This document shows, in pieces, positions 1-10,613 of a stretch of 10,613 nucleotides of DNA. The stretch's first letter is position 1. Each line of letters opens with the position of its first letter. The stretch comes from a virus. Lineage: Duplodnaviria > Heunggongvirae > Uroviricota > Caudoviricetes. The notes beneath the pieces are model-generated. The model was not told where the DNA came from. It made no database searches and was given only the letters and a program-made list of their open reading frames with translations. Location: the IMG/VR virus record IMGVR_UViG_2751185968_000013. The stretch is one strand, 5' to 3'. A program made the position numbers and the translations under genes.

Positions 1-165
1 TTTCTGGTGCGTACCGGGCTGAGAGGCGGTGTAAGTGAACTGTAGTTGCCATGTTTTACGGCAATGAGAGCAGAGATAGCGCTGATGTCCGGCAGTGCTT
101 TTGCCGTTACGCACCACGCCTTCAGTAGCGGAGCAGGAAGGACATCTGATGGAAATGGAAGCCAC
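1..165 (-). CDS. insA: IS1 InsA (N-terminal 55 codons, partial; GTG start at 165)
   Basis: Minus-strand translation from GTG at 165-163 gives [55 protein letters not shown], the zinc-finger N-terminus of InsA. The listed + strand ORF 46-255 is its antisense. Confidence 0.85.
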
Positions 166-220
166 GCAAGCACCTTAAAATCACCATCATACACTAAATC
201 AGTAAGTTGGCAGCATTACC
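1..220 (-). mobile_element. IS1-family insertion sequence, partial (left inverted-repeat end plus start of insA; continues beyond window start)
   Basis: Reverse complement of 1-220 reads GGTAATGCTGCCAACTTACTGATTTAGTGTATGATGGTG... followed by the insA reading frame, about 90% identical to the canonical IS1 left end as I recall it. The terminal inverted repeat ends at 220. Confidence 0.9.
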
Positions 221-634
221 AGAAATTTCATGTTTTAACTCATCATTATCTATAATATTTTTATGTGCATTCTCAATATATTTAGATATTGACAACTTCA
301 AAGGAGACTGTTCGTTAATGAAAGTTTTCTCCTGTTCTTTTTCACTTAATGCTAATTGTCCTTCTTCAGTATCCCACCATTTCTCAGCATATGCAGACAC
401 CAATAATTGTGCATATTCGGGTAAGTCACCATTAGATTTTGTTTTTAATTTTATATGATTTTCCCCAATTGCCTCAGCAAAATGCTTCAAAAGGTCTTGC
501 CAACATGGCACACCAAGATAACGACGAGACACACCGGAGCCGACAAATAACACTGGGGATGCTTCGAACTGCTTAAAATGCTCTTCGAGTTTTTTCTTAA
601 AATTCATACGGATACTATCTTTAAAAGAAATCAA
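221..634 (-). pseudogene. SIR2-like (sirtuin/ThsA-like) gene, N-terminal 138 codons only; 3' part cut off by the IS1 insertion at 220/221
   Basis: ORF 194-634 (-) starts at TTG 634 (SD-like AAAGGGG 1 nt upstream; alternative ATG at 607). Residues 27-49 PVLFVGSGVSRRYLGVPCWQDLL and 69-78 GDLPEYAQLL match the SIR2 N-terminal pattern recalled from ThsA (hFxGxGxS...G..W..LL...ndL..AQ). The last 8 codons plus stop (GNAANLLI*) are encoded by the IS1 inverted repeat, so the native ORF continued. GC content is low compared with the P4 backbone. Confidence 0.55.
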
Positions 635-997
635 GCCCCTTTATACTGATTACATTAAGATATTGCGGCTTACACCACCAGTAAATTGGTCAATTTTACG
701 TAAGAAATTTAATTATTTAGATTCAATTAATTATTAGATTAACTAATTGACTATCACTCCTGATGTAGCCGAATTGCTGTACCTTTGTTACGATGTAGGG
801 CTCAATCAAGGGTCCACTCCCCTTTTATAAGTAATCATGACTTTAAATTTAGGCTTAGGTGGAGCATTACTGCCGATTAGGTTCAATAAAAAGGCTTACC
901 TTAGTGAAAACTCGGCTATTTGGCACTGCTGACCAATTCCTCGTTTGAATAAGTCAGCAGCTTTCAATTTAGAGGCGAATGTGCGCTTTTAGATAAC

Positions 998-2266
998 TCA
1001 CTCGCCATTACCCCGATTGATCTTCGCATAGTCAAACGGCGTAATCCCCTTCTCCCGGTTCGCATCCAGAAAATCAGCCCACCACTGCAACATCAGCTTG
1101 CGCTCATCCAGATGTTCCGCTTTATGGATATACGCCGCCCTCACCGAATTGCGTTCCATATGGCTCATCTGCCTTTCCACCGCATCCTTCGACCATAACC
1201 CTGACTCAATCAATGAGCTACAGGCCATAGTGCGGAAGCCGTGGCCGCAAACCTCAACCTTGGTGTCATAGCCCATCACCCGCAATGCACTGTTCACCGT
1301 GTTTTCACTCATGGGCTTACTCGGATCGTGATCGCCAATAAAAATCAGCTCATGTTCGCCACAGAACTGTTTTATCTGCTTCAGGATCGCTAGCGCCTGC
1401 TTTGAAAGCGGCACCAGATGAGGTGTACGCATCTTTGCTCCTCGCTGAGAATGTTTCACACCGGGAATAGGTTCTCGCTCAGGCGGGATGGTCCACATTG
1501 ACGTTTCAAAATCGATTTCTGACCAGCGAGCAAAACGCAGCTCACTGGATCGAATAAAAATAAGCAGGGTAAGTTCGGTTGCCCAGCGGGTTAGTGGCCT
1601 GCCGGTGTATTCATCGATTTTCTGGAGTAATTCCGGGATACGCTTTAACTCCAGCGCCGGACGATGCTGTCGATTACTGGAAGCTACCGCCCCCGCCATC
1701 TCTTGCGCCGGATTGTAATCAATTAACCCGCTTTGCACTGCATAACGCATGATGGCCGTGGTGCGCTGTTGAAGGCGGGAAGCCACTTCAAGACGTCCGG
1801 ATTTCTCCACGGCTTTAATAGGAATTAACAGATCGCGGGTGCCCAGTTCAGCAATATTGTGGGAACCAATTGCCGGGAAGATATTGTCCTCCAGGCTCTT
1901 TTTTACACGATTAGCATGCTCTTCCGACCATTTTTGGTTGGTTACGAGCCACTCTCTGGCAACCTTCTCGAAAGTAATAATCTCTTTCGCCTGCTCTTCT
2001 TTCACAGCACGCTTATGCTCACGAGGATCGATACCAGCAGCTACCAGCTTTCTGGCCTCTTCCCTTTTCTTCCGCGCATCCGCCAGCGAAACATCCGGGT
2101 AAACGCCGAACGCCATCAAATGTTGTTTACCGCCAAAACGGAAACGAAATCGCCAATACTTTGAACCGCCAGGTTTTACAAGTAAGGACATGCCGTCGCC
2201 GTCAACAAGTGAATACTCTTTCTCCTCAGGTTTCGCAGAGCGAACTTTAGTATCCGTTAGGGCCAT
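998..2266 (-). CDS. int: P4-type tyrosine integrase
   Basis: Protein MALTDTKVRSAKPEEKEYSLVDGDGMSLLVKPGGSKYWRFRFRFGGKQHLMAFGVYPDVSLADARKK... with C-terminal catalytic region (HGFR, HMERNSVRAAYIHKAE) typical of P4/CP4-57-family integrases. Start chosen at ATG 2266 with SD GGAAGGAAG 7 nt upstream; the listed ORF start at 2344 is an in-frame extension without SD. Confidence 0.9.
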   Translation of the reverse strand: MALTDTKVRSAKPEEKEYSLVDGDGMSLLVKPGGSKYWRFRFRFGGKQHLMAFGVYPDVSLADARKKREEARKLVAAGIDPREHKRAVKEEQAKEIITFEKVAREWLVTNQKWSEEHANRVKKSLEDNIFPAIGSHNIAELGTRDLLIPIKAVEKSGRLEVASRLQQRTTAIMRYAVQSGLIDYNPAQEMAGAVASSNRQHRPALELKRIPELLQKIDEYTGRPLTRWATELTLLIFIRSSELRFARWSEIDFETSMWTIPPEREPIPGVKHSQRGAKMRTPHLVPLSKQALAILKQIKQFCGEHELIFIGDHDPSKPMSENTVNSALRVMGYDTKVEVCGHGFRTMACSSLIESGLWSKDAVERQMSHMERNSVRAAYIHKAEHLDERKLMLQWWADFLDANREKGITPFDYAKINRGNGE

Positions 2267-2292
2267 AATGGTCTTCCTTCCATTGGTATCTC

Positions 2293-2344
2293 GTGAGTAT
2301 ACAAGCAATATCGAATCGGCAAATATACTCATTAGTATACTCAC
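2293..2344 (-). promoter_or_regulatory. Candidate int promoter/operator: 10-bp inverted repeat GTGAGTATAC (2293-2302) / GTATACTCAC (2335-2344), with a third partial copy TATACTCA at 2324-2331 overlapping TATACT-like -10 hexamers
   Basis: Repeats read directly from sequence, 27-78 bp upstream of the int start codon. Role as an Int or repressor binding site is inferred. Confidence 0.35.
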
Positions 2345-2350
2345 AAGCCT

Positions 2351-2385
2351 GTTGATGTGGGTTGAGTCAGGTTGACTTCAGTTGA
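2351..2385. repeat. Four GTTGA pentamers in exact 10-bp phase (2351, 2361, 2371, 2381); candidate arm-type recombinase binding sites
   Basis: gttgatgtgg gttgagtcag gttgacttca gttgagggga read directly. Located between int and the att core. Function is inferred. Confidence 0.4.
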
Positions 2386-2429
2386 GGGGAAAAGCTGGAA
2401 AAGCCTTGTGTAGCGCGGATTTCAGGCAT

Positions 2430-2455
2430 AAAAAAAAGACCTCAGTTGAGGTCTA
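2430..2455 (-). terminator. Rho-independent terminator (minus strand) between att core and int
   Basis: Minus strand reads AGACCTC-caact-GAGGTCT followed by T8 (+ strand A-run 2430-2437; stem 2437-2443 / 2449-2455). Confidence 0.55.
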
Positions 2456-2467
2456 TTTACATACTTT

Positions 2468-2490
2468 TGGTGCGAAGGCCGGACTCAAAT
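2468..2490 (-). other. att core: tRNA 3'-end-like sequence (minus strand ATTTGAGTCCGGCCTTCGCACCA)
   Basis: Matches a tRNA T-arm/acceptor/CCA end, close to the tRNA-Leu (leuX) 3' end GAGTCCGGCCTTCGGCACCA that forms the P4 att core as I recall it, with one missing G. No full tRNA lies upstream of it; P4-like sequence is on both sides. Confidence 0.6.
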
Positions 2491-2682
2491 ATCAAAATAA
2501 GTTAATGATAAAAAACAAATAATAAAACACAACAATGAAATATGCCCCCTTTTGTGCCCCCACTGTTTTTCTGACCAATCTATTTTCAGCCCATCAATAA
2601 ATCGGAAAGTTAAATAATTTTTAATCAGTAAGTTTGATCCGTAGCCCGGATCCAAACCAGTGCATCTTTTATCCACATAAAA

Positions 2683-2975
2683 AATTTTTTTTCGAAAGAA
2701 CTGTTCACACTGTTCACCATTTAATTTTCTCCTTTTATTTCAGAGTGATAGGTGGTGAATAATGGGTGAAGGGTGAACATTCGATTCTTCACCTCCGGCA
2801 TTCTGCCGGTGTGACTCATACCGGTGATTAATCCCCCGTACTGAAAATCGCACAGGGAGAAAAAAGTTTTTTTTGATTTGATTGTTCACACTGTTCACCT
2901 TTCATTTTTCTCTTTTAATTTCAGTGTGATAACGGGTGAATATACGGTGAAGGGTGAACAGTGGATTGTTCACCT
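2683..2975. repeat. crr-like cis replication region: two ~115-bp direct repeats (period 181 bp) each carrying alpha-binding type I iterons
   Basis: Unit A: TGTTCACA 2702-2709, TGTTCACC 2711-2718, GGTGAACA 2772-2779. Unit B: TGTTCACA 2883-2890, TGTTCACC 2892-2899, GGTGAACA 2953-2960, TGTTCACC 2967-2974. P4 crr is described as two 120-bp repeats separated by ~60 bp containing TGTTCACC octamers. Confidence 0.75.
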
Positions 2976-2992
2976 TCGGGGGAGGTCGGGAT

Positions 2993-3017
2993 AAAAAAAG
3001 ACCGGCAGATGCCGGTC
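2993..3017 (-). terminator. Rho-independent terminator just downstream of alpha (minus strand)
   Basis: Perfect palindrome GACCGGCA-ga-TGCCGGTC (3000-3017) followed on the minus strand by T7 (+ strand A-run 2993-2999), 8 bp past the alpha stop codon. Confidence 0.7.
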
Positions 3018-3024
3018 AGGTGGG

Positions 3025-5358
3025 TCAGGTTGTTGCAGGGTCGTCACATTTTGGCAGCCAGTCGCCGTAGCTTTCCTCTTTCAGTGTCAGGTTGGTCTGT
3101 ATCCCCTGTTTGGTATGGCGCTTCTCGTAATTCAGTCCGTATTCCTTCAGCATCACCGGCAGCCCCAGCCCGAACATTTTCAGACTGAGTACATTCCGGT
3201 AGCCGTTTGCCTCCATGTAGGCCAGATAGGCGTGATAGAGGTATTTACGGTAATTACGCGGGATGATACTGGCGTTCCCCATATACATGCCGCTGGTCTG
3301 CGGCAGGGTTTCCAGATAGCCGATAAAATCAAACGTCGGGTCGGCATCCCGTTTGATGTTCAGCGCCTCGTCTGAGTTCTGCTGGGACTGAAGCAGTGAC
3401 CGGGCGAGCATCGGGTCGCTGAACTTCTGCATCAGGTGACGCACGATGACCGCCAGCTCGCGGGTGATTTTGTCCTTAAGCTGCGGGTCGCGCTCCTGCG
3501 GGGCTATCTGTTCCGGGAAGTGAATAATCACCCGCCGGCGTGACACGCCGCCGCTGCGGTCGGTGAAGCGCATCGGGTTATTGTTCACGGCCAGAATCAC
3601 CGCCGGGATATGCGTGGAGTACGCATCCCGGTATTTCGGGTCCACGGACACCGCATCGCCGCCGGTGATGGCCTTGAGTCCGGCACCGTCGCCGCTCCAT
3701 TTTTCCTGGTCCGGCAGGCGTATCAGTGAGAAGCCAGTTAACGCGGCACGTTCACGCGGGGATTCCAGCGTCTCAATGGTGGCCGACGTGGCGTTATCCT
3801 CCCCGGCCAGCAGGGTGGCGATTTCGGCCATGATACTTTTGCCGCTGCCGCCGGGACCGGTCACCTCCAGAAAGAGCTGCCAGTCGTAGCGGTTTGCCAG
3901 CACCATAAACAGTGCGGCCAGAATCACGTCGCGTTTTTCCGCACGGCCACCGGCGGCACGGTCAAGCCAGCGCCAGAACGCGGGGGCGTGGGTTTCCAGC
4001 GTTTCCCCTTCCACCGGTGGGGTGAAATCCACATCGCACAGGGTACGCATCCAGTGTGACGGACTGTGCGGGTGGAACGTGCCGTTCTGTGTGTCGAGCA
4101 CACCGTTACGAAAGCCAATCAGGCGGCGGGAGGGGGCTTCCTGCTGCGGAATAATCAGCTTCAGGGTGTCCACCACGGAGGCCACCTTCCCGGAGGAGAA
4201 CGGCGCGCGCAGACGCTGAAACAGCCCGGCCACATCCCGGGCAAAGTCCAGTGGCGGCAGCACCTTCCAGACACCATTTTCATAGCGGGACAGAAGCTGG
4301 CCGTTGGCATCGACCGCGAGCGCCTCGCCGTAATGCTCATAGATACGCATGGCCTTTTCGCTGGTACTCATGGCGGAAAACTCTGCTTCGCTCATGGTGT
4401 CGAACGGGCTTTCAGCCGGTGGCCGGATGGCATCGTAAATGGCCTTACGGGTGACCTCCCCGCCGTACTGCGTGAAGGCATCATTCCAGTCACCGAAGAC
4501 CGGCGGCAGGGCAACAACACCTTCACACGCATCTGCGGCTGCGGCGGCTTTTTTCTGGCCGTCACCGCTGAGGTCACGGTCTGCGGCAAGGACAATCTGA
4601 CAGGCCGGATGCTTCTGCCGGGCAAGGCTGGCCAGAGAAAGGAGGTTCACGGAAGAAAGCGCCACCATCACCGTTTCACCGGTCAGGTGATGTACGGTAA
4701 GTGCGGTCGCGTATCCCTCCGCTATCCACAGACGTTTTCCGGCCTGATTCTGTCCTTCAAGGGTGTGACAGGTGCCCCTGACCTGTCCGCCTTTCAGGGT
4801 GCGCTTACGGCCGTCAGCACTGATTAATTGAAGGTTAACCAGTTCGCCGCTGTCGTCATACAGTGGCACCACAAGGTCACCGGCGCGCCAGCTCACGCCA
4901 CCGGCTCTGTGTGTGCCGGTCAGCATCCGGCATTCCCGGCCGGGAAAGCCCTTGCGGGTCAGGTAGGCGTTACCGGTTCCGGGACGGGTTTTTGCCATCA
5001 GGGTTTGTGCCAGTGCGGCGGCGTTCTTCCGGGCAGCGTCTGTTTCAGCAACGGCGGCGGCCGTCACTGCCGGGTCAGCCGGGGGCAGACTGCCGGTCAC
5101 GGCAGCCACCTTTGCGGCCACGTCGGACGGGGAGACACCAAACACCTTTTCAACCAGTTTCAGGCCGTCACCGGCACCACACTGATTGCAGTACCAGGTG
5201 CCGCGCCCCTCCCTGTCATCAAAACGGAAGCGGTCACTCCCGCCACAGACCGGACAGGGCTGATGATGGTTCTTCAGCACCTGAATCCCCAGCGCCGGGA
5301 GAATACGCGGCCAGTGGCCGAGCGCATGGCTGACGGTGGCGGTTACGTTCATTTTCAT
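3025..5358 (-). CDS. alpha: P4 alpha-type multifunctional replication protein (primase, helicase, iteron-binding)
   Basis: 777 aa, the length recalled for P4 alpha. N-terminal zinc-finger primase motif CPVCGGSDRFRFDD...WYCNQCG, Walker A GPGGSGKS in the helicase region, SD AAGGAG 9 nt upstream of ATG 5358. Positioned next to the iteron repeats. Confidence 0.9.
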   Translation of the reverse strand: MKMNVTATVSHALGHWPRILPALGIQVLKNHHQPCPVCGGSDRFRFDDREGRGTWYCNQCGAGDGLKLVEKVFGVSPSDVAAKVAAVTGSLPPADPAVTAAAVAETDAARKNAAALAQTLMAKTRPGTGNAYLTRKGFPGRECRMLTGTHRAGGVSWRAGDLVVPLYDDSGELVNLQLISADGRKRTLKGGQVRGTCHTLEGQNQAGKRLWIAEGYATALTVHHLTGETVMVALSSVNLLSLASLARQKHPACQIVLAADRDLSGDGQKKAAAAADACEGVVALPPVFGDWNDAFTQYGGEVTRKAIYDAIRPPAESPFDTMSEAEFSAMSTSEKAMRIYEHYGEALAVDANGQLLSRYENGVWKVLPPLDFARDVAGLFQRLRAPFSSGKVASVVDTLKLIIPQQEAPSRRLIGFRNGVLDTQNGTFHPHSPSHWMRTLCDVDFTPPVEGETLETHAPAFWRWLDRAAGGRAEKRDVILAALFMVLANRYDWQLFLEVTGPGGSGKSIMAEIATLLAGEDNATSATIETLESPRERAALTGFSLIRLPDQEKWSGDGAGLKAITGGDAVSVDPKYRDAYSTHIPAVILAVNNNPMRFTDRSGGVSRRRVIIHFPEQIAPQERDPQLKDKITRELAVIVRHLMQKFSDPMLARSLLQSQQNSDEALNIKRDADPTFDFIGYLETLPQTSGMYMGNASIIPRNYRKYLYHAYLAYMEANGYRNVLSLKMFGLGLPVMLKEYGLNYEKRHTKQGIQTNLTLKEESYGDWLPKCDDPATT

Positions 5359-5372
5359 GGTGTTGTTCTCCT

Positions 5373-5693
5373 TCAGTGCAGTACCGGCGCTTTTATGTGA
5401 CGGGCACAGAGTTCATCCATCACAACCAGCCCGAGAAAGGACAGCGACGGTGCGGCCTTCAGGGGGCCGGATTCCATTAAATCTTCCAGCAGGGCACAGG
5501 CTATCTGACGCCCTTTTTCCTCACCGTGCTGGCGCAGATAAAAGCCTTCCAGCTCAGCGGCGATGGCCGCCTCCAGTGACTCAAGGGTGAGATGCGGGTA
5601 GCGGTGCTGACGTTCGCACACGGTCAGCCAGGCACAGGCGACAGCACGACGGTAAAGGGCTGCGCGTAAGACGGGCGGTAAGGGTGTTTTCAT
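5373..5693 (-). CDS. Hypothetical protein, 106 aa, immediately upstream of alpha in the same operon
   Basis: ORF with SD GGAGG 7 nt upstream of ATG 5693; stop 15 nt before the alpha start. No recognisable motif. Confidence 0.55.
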
Positions 5694-5828
5694 TTGCTTT
5701 CCTCCCTGTGACAGATGACTGCATTCCGTGCCGGTTGCATTAACTGATAAGGCATATCTGCGTCTCCTGAAGACGTGCGTATCCCTGCGCGAATACGCAC
5801 ATTTAATTTTTCGGGTGTCGTTTTTTAA

Positions 5829-6284
5829 TTACAGATAATTGCGGTAACTGTTATCCGGGGTGATTTCCGGGTCAGGCTCCGTGCGGGGAATTTCCCGCCA
5901 TTCCCGCGCTACCGGTGCTGCCCGGCTGACCGGAACAGTGTCCTGCGGGTAAATATCCAGATATTTCTCCCGCCATTTCTGTAATTCCGGGTCTCCGGCC
6001 ATTTCTTTCAGTACCGCATGCCGGTTTACGGGGCTGCGTTTAAACAGGTCAGGACGGTCACAGGTAAATTCCCGCAGAAAACGCCCCAGCGGGATGTCTG
6101 TGGTGCGCCCGTCGGCGAGGATACGCACAAGGATACTGAATTTACGGCGGTACGGGTTCCAGACAATGTCCGGGCAGCGGTACGGCATTTCCCACGGAAT
6201 ACCGTCTTCCAGAATGCCGACCACGGCCACATCGGGAAAACCGGCAGAACGGTAAATCTCACCGGGCTGGGGAAAATCAAACAT
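5829..6284 (-). CDS. Hypothetical protein, 151 aa (same length and position as P4 orf151)
   Basis: ATG 6284 with SD GGGAG upstream; its start overlaps the epsilon stop (ATGTTTGA). Position between epsilon and alpha, and the length, match P4 orf151. Confidence 0.6.
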   Translation of the reverse strand: MFDFPQPGEIYRSAGFPDVAVVGILEDGIPWEMPYRCPDIVWNPYRRKFSILVRILADGRTTDIPLGRFLREFTCDRPDLFKRSPVNRHAVLKEMAGDPELQKWREKYLDIYPQDTVPVSRAAPVAREWREIPRTEPDPEITPDNSYRNYL

Positions 6285-6564
6285 GCGTCCTGTCTCCCCG
6301 GTCTTTCTGCTGGGCGAGAAAATCGCGGCACAGGCCTTTGGCTTTCAGCTCATTCAGCACAAAATCAATATCTTCATTCAGGTAGCTGAAAATATGCGGA
6401 ATGTAGAGCTGATGCAGGCCGGAGAGTTCACGGTGAATCAAATCACCCCCAACAAACTGGGATACGGCGCTGGCGCGGTTGAGCTTATGGTAAGCCTCAA
6501 TGCTGAGGTGTTCACGGGCGTCATGACGTGCTGAGACGGTCTGAGGGGCTTTTTTATTACGCAC
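6277..6564 (-). CDS. epsilon: P4 epsilon-like derepression protein (95 aa)
   Basis: GTG start at 6564 with SD GGAGG 6 nt upstream gives exactly 95 aa ([10 protein letters not shown]...DRGDRTHV), the length recalled for P4 epsilon. The listed 190-aa ORF 6277-6849 is an unsupported 5' extension. Confidence 0.6.
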
Positions 6565-6754
6565 GGGACACCTCCACCACCGGCAGACGGGCAGCAAGGG
6601 AGAGCACATAGTCACGGACAAGGGAACGGCGGGCACTGCGTTCATCACCGGCCACGGTGCGAAGCATACAGATACGGGGATGACGGTCTGCGCGACGGAC
6701 AGCCGCAAACACAAAGACAAATTCAGGGTGTGAGGGGGTAAGGGTTGTAGCCAT
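6557..6754 (-). CDS. Small ORF (65 aa), first translated gene of the left operon; possible kil analogue
   Basis: ATG 6754 with strong SD AGGAGG 8 nt upstream; stop overlaps the epsilon GTG start (translational coupling). Lies directly downstream of the seqC-like hairpin. The longer in-frame ORF to 7201 lacks any SD. Confidence 0.35.
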
Positions 6755-6784
6755 GATGGCAGCCTCCTGTGAATAGCAAATAAC

Positions 6785-7081
6785 GCTATCGCCGGAGTTC
6801 TCACGCTCGATGGCGATAGCCCAGACGGGGGTGAGAATACCGGCTTCACAGGATACCGGCCAGCCCGGAGGCTGCCCCGCCTGAGCTACCATTGACTCTG
6901 CGGCATAATGAGCGGACGCGGGCAGGATGCACGGAATGCCATCTGCACGACTGACCACACACCACACCATAATCTGGCGCTCTGTGGCATTGATTGCGAC
7001 ACAAAAAAAGACGCGTGGCGCGTCATATGTCGCCTGTGAATTGCTCGGGTTCTCACGCCCGGCTGCCGATTTTGCGGCAGC
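6785..7081 (-). promoter_or_regulatory. Candidate P4-type RNA immunity leader (seqA / CI-RNA seqB / seqC arrangement)
   Basis: Direct repeat GTTCTCACGC at 7049-7058 and 6797-6806 (+ coordinates; transcribed as GCGUGAGAAC), with a partially complementary GTGAGAAT at 6831-6838 between them. The downstream copy sits in the 18-nt loop of a 9-bp stem (GCTATCGCC 6785-6793 / GGCGATAGC 6812-6820). A 7-bp hairpin (7062-7068 / 7075-7081) sits at the predicted transcript 5' end. Confidence 0.35.
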
Positions 7082-7087
7082 GGAAAA

Positions 7088-7117
7088 ACTATATCCGCAA
7101 ATGCCGGAAAAAGGCAA
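7088..7117 (-). promoter_or_regulatory. Candidate sigma70 promoter for the left operon (PLE-like)
   Basis: Minus strand TTGCCT (-35; + 7112-7117), 18-bp spacer, TATAGT (-10; + 7088-7093), just upstream of the immunity leader and downstream of vis. Confidence 0.4.
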
Positions 7118-7152
7118 GCCAGAAAAAGGGAGTTTTTGCAGAGCGGGCATCA

Positions 7153-7419
7153 TCATGCGTCGTACCCCCGTTTGCGTCCGGCAATGCGTCCGGCCATCCA
7201 TGCGGTGACTTCAGAGTGCAGCCAGGCCACATTTTTACCGCCAAGACTCACCTGCGGCGGAAATTCCCCCTTACGGATGAGTTCATAGATGGTCGAGCGT
7301 GACAGGCCGCACAGGTGCATCACTTCCGGCAGACGTAAAAAACGCTCCTGCGTGATGTCCGGCAGCGGCATCAGTGGCGTCACAGGGGCGGGAGACGGGG
7401 AAGAAAAAACAGCTTGCAT
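7153..7419 (-). CDS. vis: Vis/AlpA-family excisionase-like transcriptional regulator (88 aa)
   Basis: Contains [48 protein letters not shown], the AlpA/Vis helix-turn-helix signature. 88 aa matches P4 Vis (orf88). SD GAGG 7 nt upstream of ATG 7419. Confidence 0.8.
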
Positions 7420-7520
7420 CGGGCTACCTCGTTAATGTCCATACAGCACCGGATAAGTCCGTCCGGCTTCGGGTAGCGCTTTATTTTGTGAATATTTTTG
7501 GCAGATGCAACAGGGGGGAT

Positions 7521-7538
7521 TTGTTCCGGCAGTCTTAC
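7521..7538 (-). promoter_or_regulatory. TGT-N12-ACA box (Delta/Ogr-type activator site); candidate late promoter PLL driving vis
   Basis: TGTtccggcagtcttACA read directly; about 110 bp upstream of the vis start. P2/P4 late promoters carry TGT-N12-ACA centred near -55. Confidence 0.45.
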
Positions 7539-7697
7539 AATGGCTGTGTATTTTTTATACATCAGCGCCAGATGGCTTTAAAACGCTCTGGAAGGAGCTG
7601 GAAAAAATTATAGTGAAATACAAATTGTTTTTTCTTATTTATTTCAGTGGATTAATAAAAATAAAAAGTAATAAACAGCACAAAAAGTCTATGAGCG

Positions 7698-7801
7698 GGT
7701 GAACAGTGGTGAACAGACGGTGAACAGTCATTACTGCGATTGTTCACCCTTTAACTTACTGTATTACTTATCTTTTTTCTTATGGTGAACAGAGGTGAAC
7801 A
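7698..7801. repeat. ori-like iteron cluster: six type I octamers
   Basis: GGTGAACA at 7698-7705, 7708-7715, 7719-7726, 7784-7791, 7794-7801 and inverted TGTTCACC at 7741-7748. Flanked by an AT-rich stretch (7601-7690). Lies about 4.7 kb from the crr-like repeats, as in P4 (ori and crr 4.5 kb apart). Confidence 0.7.
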
Positions 7802-7880
7802 GTAAAATATAAAAAAACAAACAGTAAGCCGGTTTTTCCTGCGACCTTTTCCTGGCTTGCCGGTCTGAGGATGAGTCTCC

Positions 7881-7898
7881 TGTGTCAGGGCTGGCACA
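7881..7898 (+). promoter_or_regulatory. TGT-N12-ACA box; candidate Delta-activated Psid late promoter
   Basis: TGTgtcagggctggcACA, centred about 80 bp upstream of the sid ATG, with a CACAAT -10-like hexamer at 7932-7937. Confidence 0.5.
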
Positions 7899-7970
7899 TC
7901 TGCAATGCGTCGTGTTGTTGTCCGGTGTACGTCACAATTTTCTTAACCTGAAGTGACGAGGAGCCGGAAA

Positions 7971-8705
7971 ATGTCTGACAACACCATCCCTGAATATCTG
8001 CAACCCGCACTGGCACAACTGGAAAAGGCCAGAGCCGCCCACCTTGAGAACGCCCGCCTGATGGATGAGACCGTCACGGCCATTGAACGGGCAGAGCAGG
8101 AAAAAAATGCGCTGGCGCAGGCCGACGGAAATGACGCTGACGACTGGCGCACGGCCTTTCGTGCAGCCGGTGGTGTCCTGAGCGACGAGCTGAAACAGCG
8201 CCACATTGAGCGCGTGGCACGCCGGGAGCTGGTACAGGAATATGACAATCTGGCCGTGGTGCTGAATTTTGAACGTGAACGCCTGAAAGGGGCGTGTGAC
8301 AGCACGGCCACCGCCTACCGGAAGGCACATCATCACCTGCTGAGTCTGTATGCAGAGCATGAGCTGGAACACGCCCTGAATGAAACCTGTGAGGCGCTTG
8401 TCCGGGCAATGCATCTGAGTATCCTGGTACAGGAAAATCCGCTCGCCAACACCACCGGCCATCAGGGCTACGTCGCACCGGAAAAGGCTGTCATGCAGCA
8501 GGTGAAATCATCGCTGGAACAGAAAATTAAACAGATGCAAATCAGCCTCACCGGCGAGCCGGTTCTCCGGCTGACCGGACTGTCAGCGGCAACACTCCCG
8601 CACATGGATTATGAGGTGGCAGGCACACCGGCACAGCGCAAGGTGTGGCAGGACAAAATAGACCAGCAGGGAGCAGAGCTTAAGGCCAGAGGACTGCTGT
8701 CATGA
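7971..8705 (+). CDS. sid: Sid-like capsid size determination (external scaffold) protein, 244 aa
   Basis: ATG 7971 with SD GAGGAG 7 nt upstream (the listed ORF start at 7953 is an upstream GTG extension). Length 244 aa matches P4 Sid; first gene downstream of the late promoter box; stop overlaps the delta start (ATGA). Confidence 0.8.
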   Translation: MSDNTIPEYLQPALAQLEKARAAHLENARLMDETVTAIERAEQEKNALAQADGNDADDWRTAFRAAGGVLSDELKQRHIERVARRELVQEYDNLAVVLNFERERLKGACDSTATAYRKAHHHLLSLYAEHELEHALNETCEALVRAMHLSILVQENPLANTTGHQGYVAPEKAVMQQVKSSLEQKIKQMQISLTGEPVLRLTGLSAATLPHMDYEVAGTPAQRKVWQDKIDQQGAELKARGLLS

Positions 8706-9202
8706 TTTACTGCCCGTCGTGTGGACATGTTGCTCACACCCGTCGCGCACATTTCATGGACGATGGCACCAAGATAATGATTGCACAGTGCCGGAATATT
8801 TATTGCTCTGCGACATTTGAAGCGAGTGAAAGCTTTTTCTCTGACTGTAAAGATTCAGGAATGGAATACATTTCAGGCAAACAGAGATACCGCGATTCAC
8901 TGACGTCAGCCTCCGGCAGTATGAAACGCCCGAAAAGAATGCTTGTTACCGGATATTGTTGTCGGAGATGTAAAGGCCTTGCACTGTCAAGAACATCGCG
9001 GCGTCTGTCTCAGGAAGTCACCGAGCGTTTTTATGTGTGCACGGATCCGGGCTGTGGTCTGGTGTTTAAAACGCTTCAGACCATCAACCGTTTTATTGTC
9101 CGCCCGGTCACGCCGGACGAACTGGCAGAAAGCCTGCATGAAAAACAGGAACTGCCGCCAGTACGCTTAAAAACACAATCATATTCGCTGCGTCTGGAAT
9201 GA
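8702..9202 (+). CDS. delta: Delta-like late transcription activator (tandem Ogr-type zinc fingers), 166 aa
   Basis: Two Ogr-like Cys clusters (CPSCG...C..IYC and CCRRC...CTDPGC). 166 aa matches P4 Delta, a covalent dimer of Ogr-like domains. Confidence 0.85.
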   Translation: MIYCPSCGHVAHTRRAHFMDDGTKIMIAQCRNIYCSATFEASESFFSDCKDSGMEYISGKQRYRDSLTSASGSMKRPKRMLVTGYCCRRCKGLALSRTSRRLSQEVTERFYVCTDPGCGLVFKTLQTINRFIVRPVTPDELAESLHEKQELPPVRLKTQSYSLRLE

Positions 9203-9275
9203 GGGCTGCCGGTTAACACCGGCCGTCGCCGCACACCGTATTTTTATTCTTCAGCATGATGAGAAAGAGATAACG

Positions 9276-9848
9276 ATGGAAAGCACAGCCTTACAGCAGG
9301 TCTTTGACACCTGTCAGAATAACAAAGCAGCATGGCTGCAACGCAAAAATGAGCTGGCTGCGGCCGAACAGGAATATCTGCGGCTTCTGTCCGGGGAAGG
9401 CAGAAACGTCAGTCGCCTGGACGAATTACGCAATATTATCGAAGTCAGAAAATGGCAGGTGAATCAGGCTGCCGGTCGTTATATTCGTTCGCATGAAGCC
9501 GTTCAGCACATCAGCATCCGCGACCGGCTGAATGATTTTATGCAGCAGCACGGCACAGCACTGGCGGCGGCACTGGCACCGGAGCTGATGGGCTACAGTG
9601 AGCTGACGGCCATTGCCCGAAACTGTGCCATACAGCGTGCCACAGATGCCCTGCGTGAAGCCCTTCTGTCCTGGCTTGCGAAGGGGGAAAAAATTAATTA
9701 TTCCGCACAGGATAGTGACATTTTAACGACCATCGGATTCAGGCCTGACGCGACTTCGGTGGATGACAGCCGTGAAAAATTCACCCCTGCGCAGAACATG
9801 ATTTTTTCGCGTAAAAGTGCGCAACTGGCATCACGTCAGTCTGTGTAA
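9276..9848 (+). CDS. psu: Psu-like polarity suppression / capsid decoration protein, 190 aa
   Basis: Length 190 aa and position (last late gene before cos) match P4 Psu; the N-terminus MESTALQQVFDTCQNNKAAWLQRKNELAAAEQEYLRLL matches Psu as I recall it. Confidence 0.8.
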   Translation: MESTALQQVFDTCQNNKAAWLQRKNELAAAEQEYLRLLSGEGRNVSRLDELRNIIEVRKWQVNQAAGRYIRSHEAVQHISIRDRLNDFMQQHGTALAAALAPELMGYSELTAIARNCAIQRATDALREALLSWLAKGEKINYSAQDSDILTTIGFRPDATSVDDSREKFTPAQNMIFSRKSAQLASRQSV

Positions 9849-9883
9849 AATTCCCCGAAAATCCGCCCGTTTTTACTGAAAAA

Positions 9884-9923
9884 AGCCATGCATCGATAAG
9901 GTGCATGGCTTTGCATGCGTTTT
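9884..9923 (+). terminator. Candidate terminator of the sid-delta-psu operon
   Basis: 9-bp stem AGCCATGCA (9884-9892) / TGCATGGCT (9902-9910) with a 9-nt loop, followed by TTGCATGCGTTTT. The T-tract is interrupted, so this is a weak call. Confidence 0.4.
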
Positions 9924-10012
9924 CCTGCCTCATTTTCTGCAGACCGCGCCATTCCCGGCGCAGCCTGAGCGTGACTGTGCAACTGCATTAAAACCGCCCT
10001 GCAAAGCGGGCG

Positions 10013-10031: not shown

Positions 10032-10237
10032 TGCGCGCCATGCCGTGAGGATAATTATTTTATTAATATTCAGCTCATGACGTCTGTAATTGGGAAGAAG
10101 TGAAAAATGCTCATGTAACTTATGAATATTTAACGTTAAACCGATCAAATTCTAGGGTGAAAACATTGCCCGCACGAAGTCAATGGGGTTATGCTTAATT
10201 TTTGAACATGATACATATCCCAAGATAAGAAGCTAAG

Positions 10238-10613
10238 TGAACCGCCCCGGGTTTCCTGGAGAGTGTTTTATCTGTGAACTCAGGCTGCCAGATCATCGTT
10301 TCCGATGGAAGCATAATAAGCTTTTTCTGCTTCTGCCGGAGGGATGTGGCCCAGCCTTTCCAGCAATCGTCGATTATTATACCAGTCCACCCACGTGAGT
10401 GTGGCCAGTTCCACTTCTGCACGGTTTTTCCAGCTCTTACGGTGTATTACCTCCGCTTTGTAAAGACCATTGATGCTCTCCGCCATCGCGTTGTCATACG
10501 AGTCGCCTGTACTTCCTGTTGATGCCAGTAATCCGGCTTCCTTAAGCCGCTGTGTGTAGGCCAGCGATACATACTGAGAACCTTTATCACTGTGATGGAC
10601 CGTGCCGGACGGT
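10238..10613 (-). mobile_element. IS3-family insertion sequence, partial (IS629/IS3411-like end; continues beyond window end)
   Basis: Terminal sequence TGAACCGCCCCGGGTTTCCTGGAGAGTGTTTTATCTGTGAACTCAG starts at 10238, which I recall as the IS629-type inverted repeat. It is followed by the transposase C-terminus on the minus strand. Confidence 0.8.
10280..10613 (-). CDS. IS3-family transposase (OrfB) C-terminal part, partial
   Basis: Minus-strand translation ...PSGTVHHSDKGSQYVSLAYTQRLKEAGLLASTGSTGDSYDNAMAESINGLYKAEVIHRKSWKNRAEVELATLTWVDWYNNRRLLERLGHIPPAEAEKAYYASIGNDDLAA* carries the DDE-integrase signature (HSD..., SYDNA..ES.N). The listed ORF 10280-10486 is just the portion after an internal Met. 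Confidence 0.85.
   Translation of the reverse strand, partial: PSGTVHHSDKGSQYVSLAYTQRLKEAGLLASTGSTGDSYDNAMAESINGLYKAEVIHRKSWKNRAEVELATLTWVDWYNNRRLLERLGHIPPAEAEKAYYASIGNDDLAA

Follow-up and report, generated by a model that had tools for sequence, protein, structure and literature searches.

A 10.6-kb viral sequence with the satellite phage P4 immunity region, its antisense RNA and two bipartite target sites

The locus and its match to satellite phage P4

The window analyzed here, a stretch of 10,613 nucleotides from a Caudoviricetes record (IMG/VR record IMGVR_UViG_2751185968_000013), carries on its minus strand the genes orf88/vis, eta/kil, epsilon, orf151, orf106 and alpha, in the order that they have in the satellite phage P4. 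Pfam searches support this order, with an AlpA-family product for orf88, Phage_ASH for eta, Derepression for epsilon, DUF5375 for orf106, and a 777-aa alpha protein; Pfam returned nothing for orf151, for Kil on its own (65 aa), or for a 250-aa frame at 7953–8705 within which the 244-aa sid lies. The features of the immunity region are collected in Table 1. Coordinates written from high to low in the text follow the direction of the transcript.

Table 1. Features of the immunity region, by position in the window.
Feature	Position	Strand	Description
orf88/vis	7153..7419	-	AlpA-family HTH protein; Pfam Phage_AlpA, 74 bits
eta ORF	6557..7156	-	199 aa; Pfam Phage_ASH
PLE promoter	7088..7117	-	-35 TTGCCT 7117-7112, 18-nt spacer, -10 TATAGT 7093-7088
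Leader hairpin 1	7062..7081	-	GCUGCCG CAAAAU CGGCAGC, 7 bp; 5' end of PLE transcript
seqA hairpin	7046..7061	-	4-bp stem; a-box GUGAGAA (7056-7050) in 8-nt loop
b-box of site A	7033..7040	-	UUCACAGG, complementary to CI hairpin 2 loop
Intrinsic terminator	7003..7024	-	Stem GACGCG/CGCGUC 7024-7010, then U7 7009-7003
cI gene / CI RNA	6809..6896	-	Rfam C4 antisense RNA (RF01695)
b' box	6845..6853	-	U-CCUGUGAA in CI hairpin 2 loop; pairs with both b-boxes
seqB (a' box)	6831..6838	-	AUUCUCAC, single-stranded between CI hairpin 2 and closing stem
seqC hairpin	6785..6820	-	Perfect 9-bp stem, 6820-6812 with 6793-6785; a-box GUGAGAA 6804-6798
b-box of site C	6763..6773	-	UUCACAGG 6773-6766, extendable to A6765; overlaps kil SD
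kil ORF	6557..6754	-	65 aa, nested in frame in eta

The start codon of eta overlaps the stop codon of orf88/vis (ATGA at 7156–7153), and the two genes are translationally coupled, with orf88/vis upstream, an arrangement that provides context for an anti-immunity route from the late promoter. From this start the eta frame spans PLE, seqA, the terminator, cI and seqC, which the first-pass annotation, made from the sequence alone, had missed. In 67 of 75 relatives no stop codon interrupts this frame anywhere in the RNA module, and the chance of about 120 stop-free codons is estimated at roughly 0.003 per locus; a role for eta translation has been described (PMC10111431). The start codon of kil is conserved in 74 of the 75 relatives. 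Kil had been taken in the earlier reading for the first translated ORF, which does not hold strictly, as eta is read from the upstream late promoter; kil is the first gene whose translation CI would block. The eta/kil frame corresponds to the old "cI/ash" frame of P4 records.

Direct alignment of positions 6700–7160 with the P4 sequence X51522 gives 459 identical positions out of 461 aligned. The sole difference is one dinucleotide swap at 7082–7081, where the window reads CG and X51522 reads GC; because G7081 is invariant in 75 relatives, X51522 is probably wrong at this point or represents a laboratory mutant. A blastn search against phage records returned P4 itself, with 99.3% identity across 999 nt. 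The resemblance extends over about 7.5 kb, with 2468–10012 of the window matching P4 4078–11624 at 97.9%, and the segment from PLE to the start of kil is homologous to P4 coordinates of about 8360–8730. The first-pass annotation had proposed a P4-style module of a CI RNA with seqA, seqB and seqC and had named alignment with the P4 immunity region as a check. That proposal is well supported by the alignment, by three Rfam matches and by covariation among relatives. The term "analogous" that came with it has to be given up, however, since a sequence identical but for one swap is the P4 region itself and not an analogue. We put at about 0.95 the probability that the minus-strand locus is P4's own immunity region, working by the published CI RNA mechanism. 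The P4 immunity locus found here is already known and well studied (Deho, Ghisotti and co-workers); because genetic and biochemical work on it goes back to the 1990s, its recovery adds nothing new to biology. What the case does illustrate is that a classic RNA-based immunity system can be recovered from raw sequence by careful reading.

Outside the immunity region, reference P4 differs from this copy in its integrase and cargo region. The core ORFs are all intact here: int, alpha (777 aa), orf106, orf151, epsilon, eta/kil, vis, sid, delta and psu. The window ends on the left in an IS1 fragment and on the right in an IS3-family fragment, so that this copy may not be an active satellite, and a truncated SIR2-family gene adjoins the integrase. 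A circular contig in which one IS joins both ends of the window was considered and rejected, the left end being IS1 and the right end IS3-family. ARAGORN found no tRNA in the window, and the att core consists of only the partial 3' end of a tRNA-Leu. The same region is present in about 1050 of 5426 complete E. coli genomes, at up to four places per genome, and PGAP annotates no RNA there, only the eta ORF that encloses kil, as "host cell division inhibitor Icd-like". Because the annotation omits the CI RNA, the real regulator is invisible in some 1000 complete E. coli genomes.

Promoter, leader and CI RNA

PLE is the sole sigma-70-like site returned by a promoter scan of 6400–7700. A sigma70 promoter had been placed at this very position of the minus strand (7088–7117) in the first-pass annotation; it is present, and the P4 record X02534, from the 1980s, has the same -10 element annotated. 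The -10 is conserved among relatives as TATAGT or TACAGT. Transcription probably starts at about G7081, which is where the Rfam isrK model begins. The 5'-proximal hairpin of the earlier reading was likewise found (7081–7062, 7 bp); it is 100% paired in 75 relatives, and two of its pairs carry compensatory changes. The seqA hairpin follows, with the b-box of site A situated 9 nt past it.

Between seqA and cI lies an intrinsic terminator, absent from the first-pass annotation and found by an independent scan, whose stem is 96% paired in the relatives and whose U-run is present in all of them. With an intrinsic terminator at the end of the leader, a 78-nt IsrK-like RNA (7081–7004) can be made. 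The Rfam isrK model (RF01394) matches at 7081–7004 with 69.7 bits against a gathering threshold of 50, over model positions 1–77 of 77, and folding of the leader gives two 5' hairpins and the terminator, as in the model. A match to Rfam c4-a1b1 (RF03163) covers 7094–7042 with 49.5 bits against a threshold of 46.7, a small margin, and overlaps isrK as expected. We take the leader terminator (7024–7003) to be the "t1" of the P4 literature. Briani et al. reportedly found in 2000 that t1 is used more when CI pairs with seqA, and that CI is autoregulated in this way.

The cI gene matches the Rfam C4 model at 6896–6809 with 74.9 bits against a threshold of 45 (E = 1.4e-13), over model positions 1–87 of 87. 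Judged from the limits of its stem, the mature CI RNA would extend from about 6891 to 6813, or 79 nt, presumably the same size as the mature CI RNA of P4. Its fold consists of a closing stem of 16–17 bp around hairpin 1 (6874–6861) and hairpin 2 (6860–6839). Taken alone, CI folds with -49.3 kcal/mol and z = -5.4, a stability reached by none of 200 shuffles, and the MFE and centroid structures are identical. In 75 relatives the CI helices (the closing stem and the two hairpins) are 99.8–100% paired, with compensatory changes at 7 pairs. The 3' arm of the closing stem (6830–6814) is followed by C6813, C6812 and A6811, giving an end of the form ...GCUAUCG-CCA that resembles a tRNA acceptor, and C6813 and C6812 are invariant in 76 sequences. 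This tRNA-like fold is absent from the first-pass annotation. The RNA carries the features of an RNase P substrate, an acceptor-like stem and a 3' (R)CCA, and the CI RNA of P4 is listed as one, like the C4 RNA of P1/P7 (PMC5499578). In P4 it is a stable processed CI RNA that confers immunity, the immunity factor being RNA (PMC4825925, PMC5499578), and the C4 and IsrK families are the CI RNA and seqA of the P4 literature (PMC3632133, PMC10111431, PMC4825925).

Downstream of cI, the seqC hairpin is 99.0% paired in the relatives and 3 of its pairs are compensatory. The second copy of the repeated 10-mer sits, as had been described, in the loop of this perfect 9-bp stem upstream of a Shine–Dalgarno sequence: AGGAGG at 6768–6763, followed by the kil ATG at 6754. 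The 5' arm of seqC (6820–6812) coincides in sequence with the 3' arm of the CI stem, and the precursor can therefore form only one of these two structures at a time. When the 337-nt leader is folded whole, the MFE structure is a long-range one without the CI fold, and the separate pieces fold as expected; because the RNA folds co-transcriptionally and is processed, the whole-leader MFE is uninformative.

Complementarity between CI and its two targets

The window holds two copies of the 10-mer GCGTGAGAAC and no more, at 7058–7049 and 6806–6797, and both are exact, as the first-pass annotation had it. About 50 pairs of repeated 10-mers are expected in 10.6 kb (estimated as N^2/2/4^10), and one repeat is therefore unremarkable; what is unusual is to find three mutually complementary copies in a span of 260 nt. 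The core GTGAGAA has 4 matches in the window against 1.1 expected, three of which are the two repeat copies and a reverse complement at 6837–6831. The element at 6831–6838 had been described as "partially complementary" to the repeats; it is present, but the description understated it, as the pairing comprises 7 contiguous base pairs with flanking G–C pairs. A second complementarity of 8–9 bp, absent from the earlier reading, joins the CI loop CCUGUGAA (6852–6845) with UUCACAGG, which occurs exactly twice on the transcript, at 7040–7033 and 6773–6766. This b-box element has 3 matches against 0.39 expected, and none of 200 shuffles reached 3. With b-boxes beside both a-boxes, each target is bipartite (a, then b) and co-linear with b' and a' of CI.

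The duplex of the 20-nt CI core has a predicted energy of -23.9 kcal/mol with site A and -22.6 kcal/mol with site C. Dinucleotide-shuffled targets give about -12 ± 2.5 kcal/mol, and none of 1000 reached the values of sites A and C; the comparison with shuffled controls that the first-pass annotation had suggested is in this sense favorable, the complementarity being better than in all 1000 shuffles. Duplex energy alone is nevertheless not decisive, because the GC-rich core reaches similar energies at unrelated sites, namely about -22.7 kcal/mol at 3144–3183, 4924–4953 and 2814–2848 (alpha/crr). A scan that called for both boxes placed site C (-21.9) first and site A (-19.7) second on the minus strand. 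When CI was cofolded with either target in RNAcofold, the net gain was only -1 to -2.4 kcal/mol, close to zero because loop–loop pairing with intact hairpins cannot be represented.

Covariation across 75 relatives is the decisive evidence that the module exceeds chance. A search with the alpha protein, taking one genome per species, gave 80 loci ranging from Enterobacter to Yersinia, Pectobacterium and Pantoea; in 76 of these, nhmmer located the cI and seqA segments, both upstream of alpha, and the matches per segment number 78 when two P4 reference records are counted. The covariation alignment comprised 75 distinct loci from other enterobacterial species together with the window. Between CI and site A, 99.4% of the cells in this alignment are paired, with compensatory double changes at 12 of the 15 pairs, against 36–49% paired in a control in which the partners were slid along each other. 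Taken box by box, seqB with the seqA a-box is 99.8% paired (6 of 7 pairs compensatory), and b' with the b-box of site A 99.0% (6 of 8). Between CI and site C, 98.0% of the cells are paired, again with 12 of 15 pairs compensatory; here seqB with the seqC a-box is 100% paired and b' with the b-box 96.3% (6 of 8 compensatory), and most of the misses at site C are alignment shifts of one column. The intramolecular helices overall are 99.3% paired, with 11 compensatory pairs. These figures show cleanly that each of the two recognition boxes has co-evolved with both target sites.

Mechanism, competing readings and related systems

By the mechanism described for P4, PLE would be constitutive, with transcription starting at about 7081. 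The leader would form two hairpins, the second of which would expose the a-box GUGAGAA, followed by the b-box UUCACAGG and the terminator. Transcripts that read through this terminator would contain cI, and cleavage of the 5' end by RNase P together with trimming of the 3' end by exonucleases would leave a stable CI RNA of about 79 nt. This RNA is predicted to expose two boxes, the hairpin 2 loop CCUGUGAA and seqB UUCUCAC, which would pair, antiparallel and co-linear, with site A (7056–7033) and site C (6804–6765) on nascent transcripts. Pairing at site A, upstream of cI, would favor termination at the leader terminator and so amount to autoregulation of CI; pairing at site C, downstream of cI, would block translation of kil, whose Shine–Dalgarno sequence is covered by the b-box, and would bring about premature termination downstream. 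As a consequence of pairing at site C, epsilon and the alpha primase–helicase would be switched off, and the satellite would stay dormant, with immunity to superinfection. Transcripts that begin at the late promoter, farther upstream, would escape, because translation of vis and then eta runs through the whole module. The CI/seqA/seqC mechanism has been described (PMC4825925, PMC3632133, PMC10111431), as has the escape of late-promoter transcripts through vis–eta translation (PMC10111431, PMC4825925). The RNA ends, processing by RNase P and PNPase, the assignment of terminators to pairings and the role of Rho are given here as they are proposed in the literature or as they may be deduced from the sequence.

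It is conceivable that the repeats are mere by-products of eta/Ash-family coding, arising from peptide motifs or codon usage and having no RNA function, and the uninterrupted frame (7156–6557), with its Pfam Phage_ASH match and its retention in 67 of 75 relatives, would suit such an origin. Box changes are, however, compensated at distances of 170–290 nt, at 12 of 15 pairs per target and with Watson–Crick pairing kept; protein constraint cannot yield compensatory pairing changes, and a coding-only origin is excluded on that ground. The matches to three Rfam covariance models, the z of -5.4 for the CI fold, and the P4 experiments that show an RNA immunity factor (PMC4825925, PMC5499578) speak against it as well, and we give this explanation practically no weight. 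It is also very improbable that this copy is a decayed, IS-disrupted and transcriptionally dead remnant of P4. Such decay could be read into the IS1 and IS3-family fragments at the ends and the truncated SIR2-family gene by the integrase, but these IS fragments sit between cos and int, in cargo DNA known to vary, and not in the core, where the ORFs are intact, and the immunity region is identical to that of functional P4.

A reading that would add to the CI mechanism is that the 78-nt leader RNA (7081–7004) acts in trans, either as a decoy that would titrate CI or as an activator of the kind shown for Gifsy-1 IsrK, which would remodel the long transcript and thereby allow translation of the ORFs downstream. 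The unit fits Rfam isrK end to end (69.7 bits), and it carries an a-box and a b-box and then a terminator whose U-tail is of the type usual in sRNAs that bind Hfq. In Gifsy-1, the read-through transcript of isrK is itself a trans target of the IsrK sRNA (PMC4825925), and in S. Typhi the IsrK-like element of P4-like prophages was found by TraDIS to be required, with "mechanism unclear" (PMC3632133). Among the relatives, the locus L054 has a site A that mismatches its own CI, which is hard to square with a role as cis target only. At site A, however, covariation with CI (99.4%) is no looser than at site C, as expected of a pairing partner of CI, and this fits a target and a decoy alike. A trans-acting leader RNA seems to us rather unlikely, and the locus is best read as the P4 immunity region in which seqA is a target of CI.

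The layout of the P4 locus recurs in the immI c4 region of P1 and P7 (RF01695), which belongs like it to the C4 family and has a promoter, an upstream target, an antisense RNA and a downstream target, the last covering the RBS of an Icd-like gene as in P4. Both P1/P7 c4 and P4 CI are RNase P substrates (PMC5499578, PMC2190699). The c4 RNA of P1 differs in that it provides a secondary immunity, guarding an antirepressor (icd-ant) under the C1 protein repressor, and in its box sequences; in P4, unlike P1, immunity relies on the RNA alone, which acts on replication genes, chiefly through transcription termination. The a' and b' elements of c4, the P1/P7 RNA that controls icd-ant, are said to have been described by Citron and Schuster in 1990. 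Heteroimmunity between P1 and P7 arises through compensatory box changes, and such changes are likewise seen among P4-like elements. Bipartite boxes are also found in the P1-like phage D6 (UCUCAA with UUGAGA, and CCUUUUGC with GCAAAAGG). The N15-like phage phiKO2 has isrK, c4-a1b1 and C4 matches arranged as in P4, with icd and antirepressor genes behind them, and its boxes too are complementary (UUCCUAC with GUAGGAA, and GCUGAUUGG with CCAGUCAGC); the bipartite complementarity, shared by D6 and phiKO2, is therefore a trait of the whole C4 family, in keeping with the a' and b' elements of P1/P7 c4. In the N15-like linear plasmid-prophages (N15, phiKO2) the anti-immunity locus makes a small processed RNA and differs from the P4 region in controlling antirepressors (icd-antA/antB) alongside a protein repressor. 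Gifsy-1 IsrK/STnc1160 of Salmonella resembles P4 in having an isrK leader and, downstream on the same transcript, a C4-like processed RNA, and differs in that the short RNA activates translation of the long isoform (orf45-anrP) (PMC4825925); the seqA leader of P4, unlike Gifsy-1 IsrK, is described as a CI target that promotes termination.

It is possible, although we hold the idea only tentatively, that the immunity specificity of P4-like satellites is a two-box combinatorial code, in which a and b vary independently and each is matched at both targets. A systematic picture of such a freely recombining, two-box specificity code is the only element of this study that is possibly new. If the b-box has gone unrecognized as a co-determinant and the modules recombine, the coexistence of many mutually heteroimmune satellites would be accounted for; combinatorial assortment of the boxes could then predict cross-immunity among P4-like satellites, and the code, if true, would offer a simple sequence-based scheme for immunity typing. 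Across 76 loci the a-box falls into six types (GUGAGAA, GUGGAAA, GUAGGAA, UUGGCGU, UUUGCAG and UUAGCAG), the third of which is also the a-box of phiKO2, there in a different genome context. The b-box has about 10–16 variants, and a and b together form 33 combinations in the same 76 loci. L054 is a natural hybrid, its site A no longer fitting its own CI.

Mixed and shared recognition specificities

The Mangrovibacter yixingensis locus L054 (L054:2-337) combines recognition elements of two specificity types. Its site A boxes are GUAGGAA and CUCAAUGG, while the boxes of its own CI RNA, UUUCCAC and CCGUUAGA, match those of its site C. L054 is a natural hybrid, in which both site A boxes are of another specificity type than the CI and site C of the same locus; this difference in type implies that recombination joined the two parts somewhere between site A and cI. 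Such a locus would be expected to have lost CI-dependent control at the leader terminator and to have retained immunity at site C.

The same isrK-C4 tandem found in P4-like loci is also present in the P1-like phage D6 and the N15-like phage phiKO2, 5' of icd and antirepressor genes, and each of the two phages has its own matched a-boxes and b-boxes. The phiKO2 a-box (GUAGGAA/UUCCUAC) is identical to one of the P4-like a-types, and this common box makes it possible that the RNAs of a satellite and of an unrelated prophage engage in cross-talk.

Spacer, reading frame and leader hairpin across relatives

Between the leader terminator and cI, P4 and its six nearest relatives within the aligned set (L003, L004, L014, L022, L038 and L042) carry about 40-45 nucleotides more than the other 69 loci. 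Despite this difference in spacer length, 67 of the 75 related loci keep the eta frame open from one end of the module to the other. In a Pectobacterium/Dickeya group (L059, L061, L065, L066, L067, L069 and L071), the upstream frame ends 21-30 nt short of kil owing to a 1-nt difference immediately 5' of the kil ATG; no ORF of the eta type can therefore share a frame with kil in these loci, where the anti-immunity route via eta translation may be different, or may run through another frame.

Direct alignment places C7082 and G7081 of the window against GC in the P4 reference (X51522/NC_001609). Leader hairpin 1 has 7 bp with the window's CG, versus 6 bp with the reference GC, and G7081 is invariant in alignment A2 (75/75 relatives). 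The reference record probably owes its GC at 7082-7081 to an early sequencing error or to a mutation acquired in the laboratory.

Probable chance pairing, and annotation of the immunity RNA

Three sites within alpha and the crr region form duplexes with the CI core of about -22.7 kcal/mol, equal in strength to seqC. A motif search of the window found the GUGAGAA core absent from all three, and these pairings are probably GC-driven chance matches.

E. coli XJ6.1 carries a 99.8%-identical copy of the region (L084; NZ_CP074356.1, 7580-8442), for which RefSeq/PGAP annotates the vis and eta ORFs (the latter as 'Icd-like') but lists neither CI nor the IsrK-like leader as an ncRNA; likewise, in none of the best-matching E. 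coli records listed does an RNA feature lie beneath the match. In this complete genome the actual immunity factor has no annotation.

Presumed att core and ends of the window

For the segment holding the integrase, the matches are to prophages of E. coli that sit at tRNA-Leu, and the P4 match begins at 2468, so that the two overlap by 19 bp (2468-2486), presumably the att core. Because integrase, core and alpha are contiguous, the window has an attP arrangement, unintegrated or packaged, and does not represent a prophage junction.

Matches of the window to Stx phages correspond to the IS3-family element at its right end. That the two ends are halves of one insertion sequence was ruled out, as IS1 lies at the start and an IS3-family element at the end, with no joining; the contig probably broke at repeats, leaving insertion sequence fragments at both ends.

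Positions of features in the window and in two phage loci
Feature	Sequence	Position	Strand	Remarks
IS1 fragment	window	1-229		99% identical to IS1 transposase regions
Truncated SIR2-family gene (defence-type cargo) and 448-aa tyrosine integrase	window	222-2486
Sites pairing with the 20-nt CI core	window	3144-3183, 4924-4953, 2814-2848	minus	by duplex energy
Extra spacer nucleotides	window	6900-6960		alignment A2 columns about 170-218
IS3-family element	window	10203-10613		first ~410 nt of the element
isrK-C4 tandem	L085 (phage D6)	477-687
isrK-C4 tandem	L086 (phiKO2)	610-809
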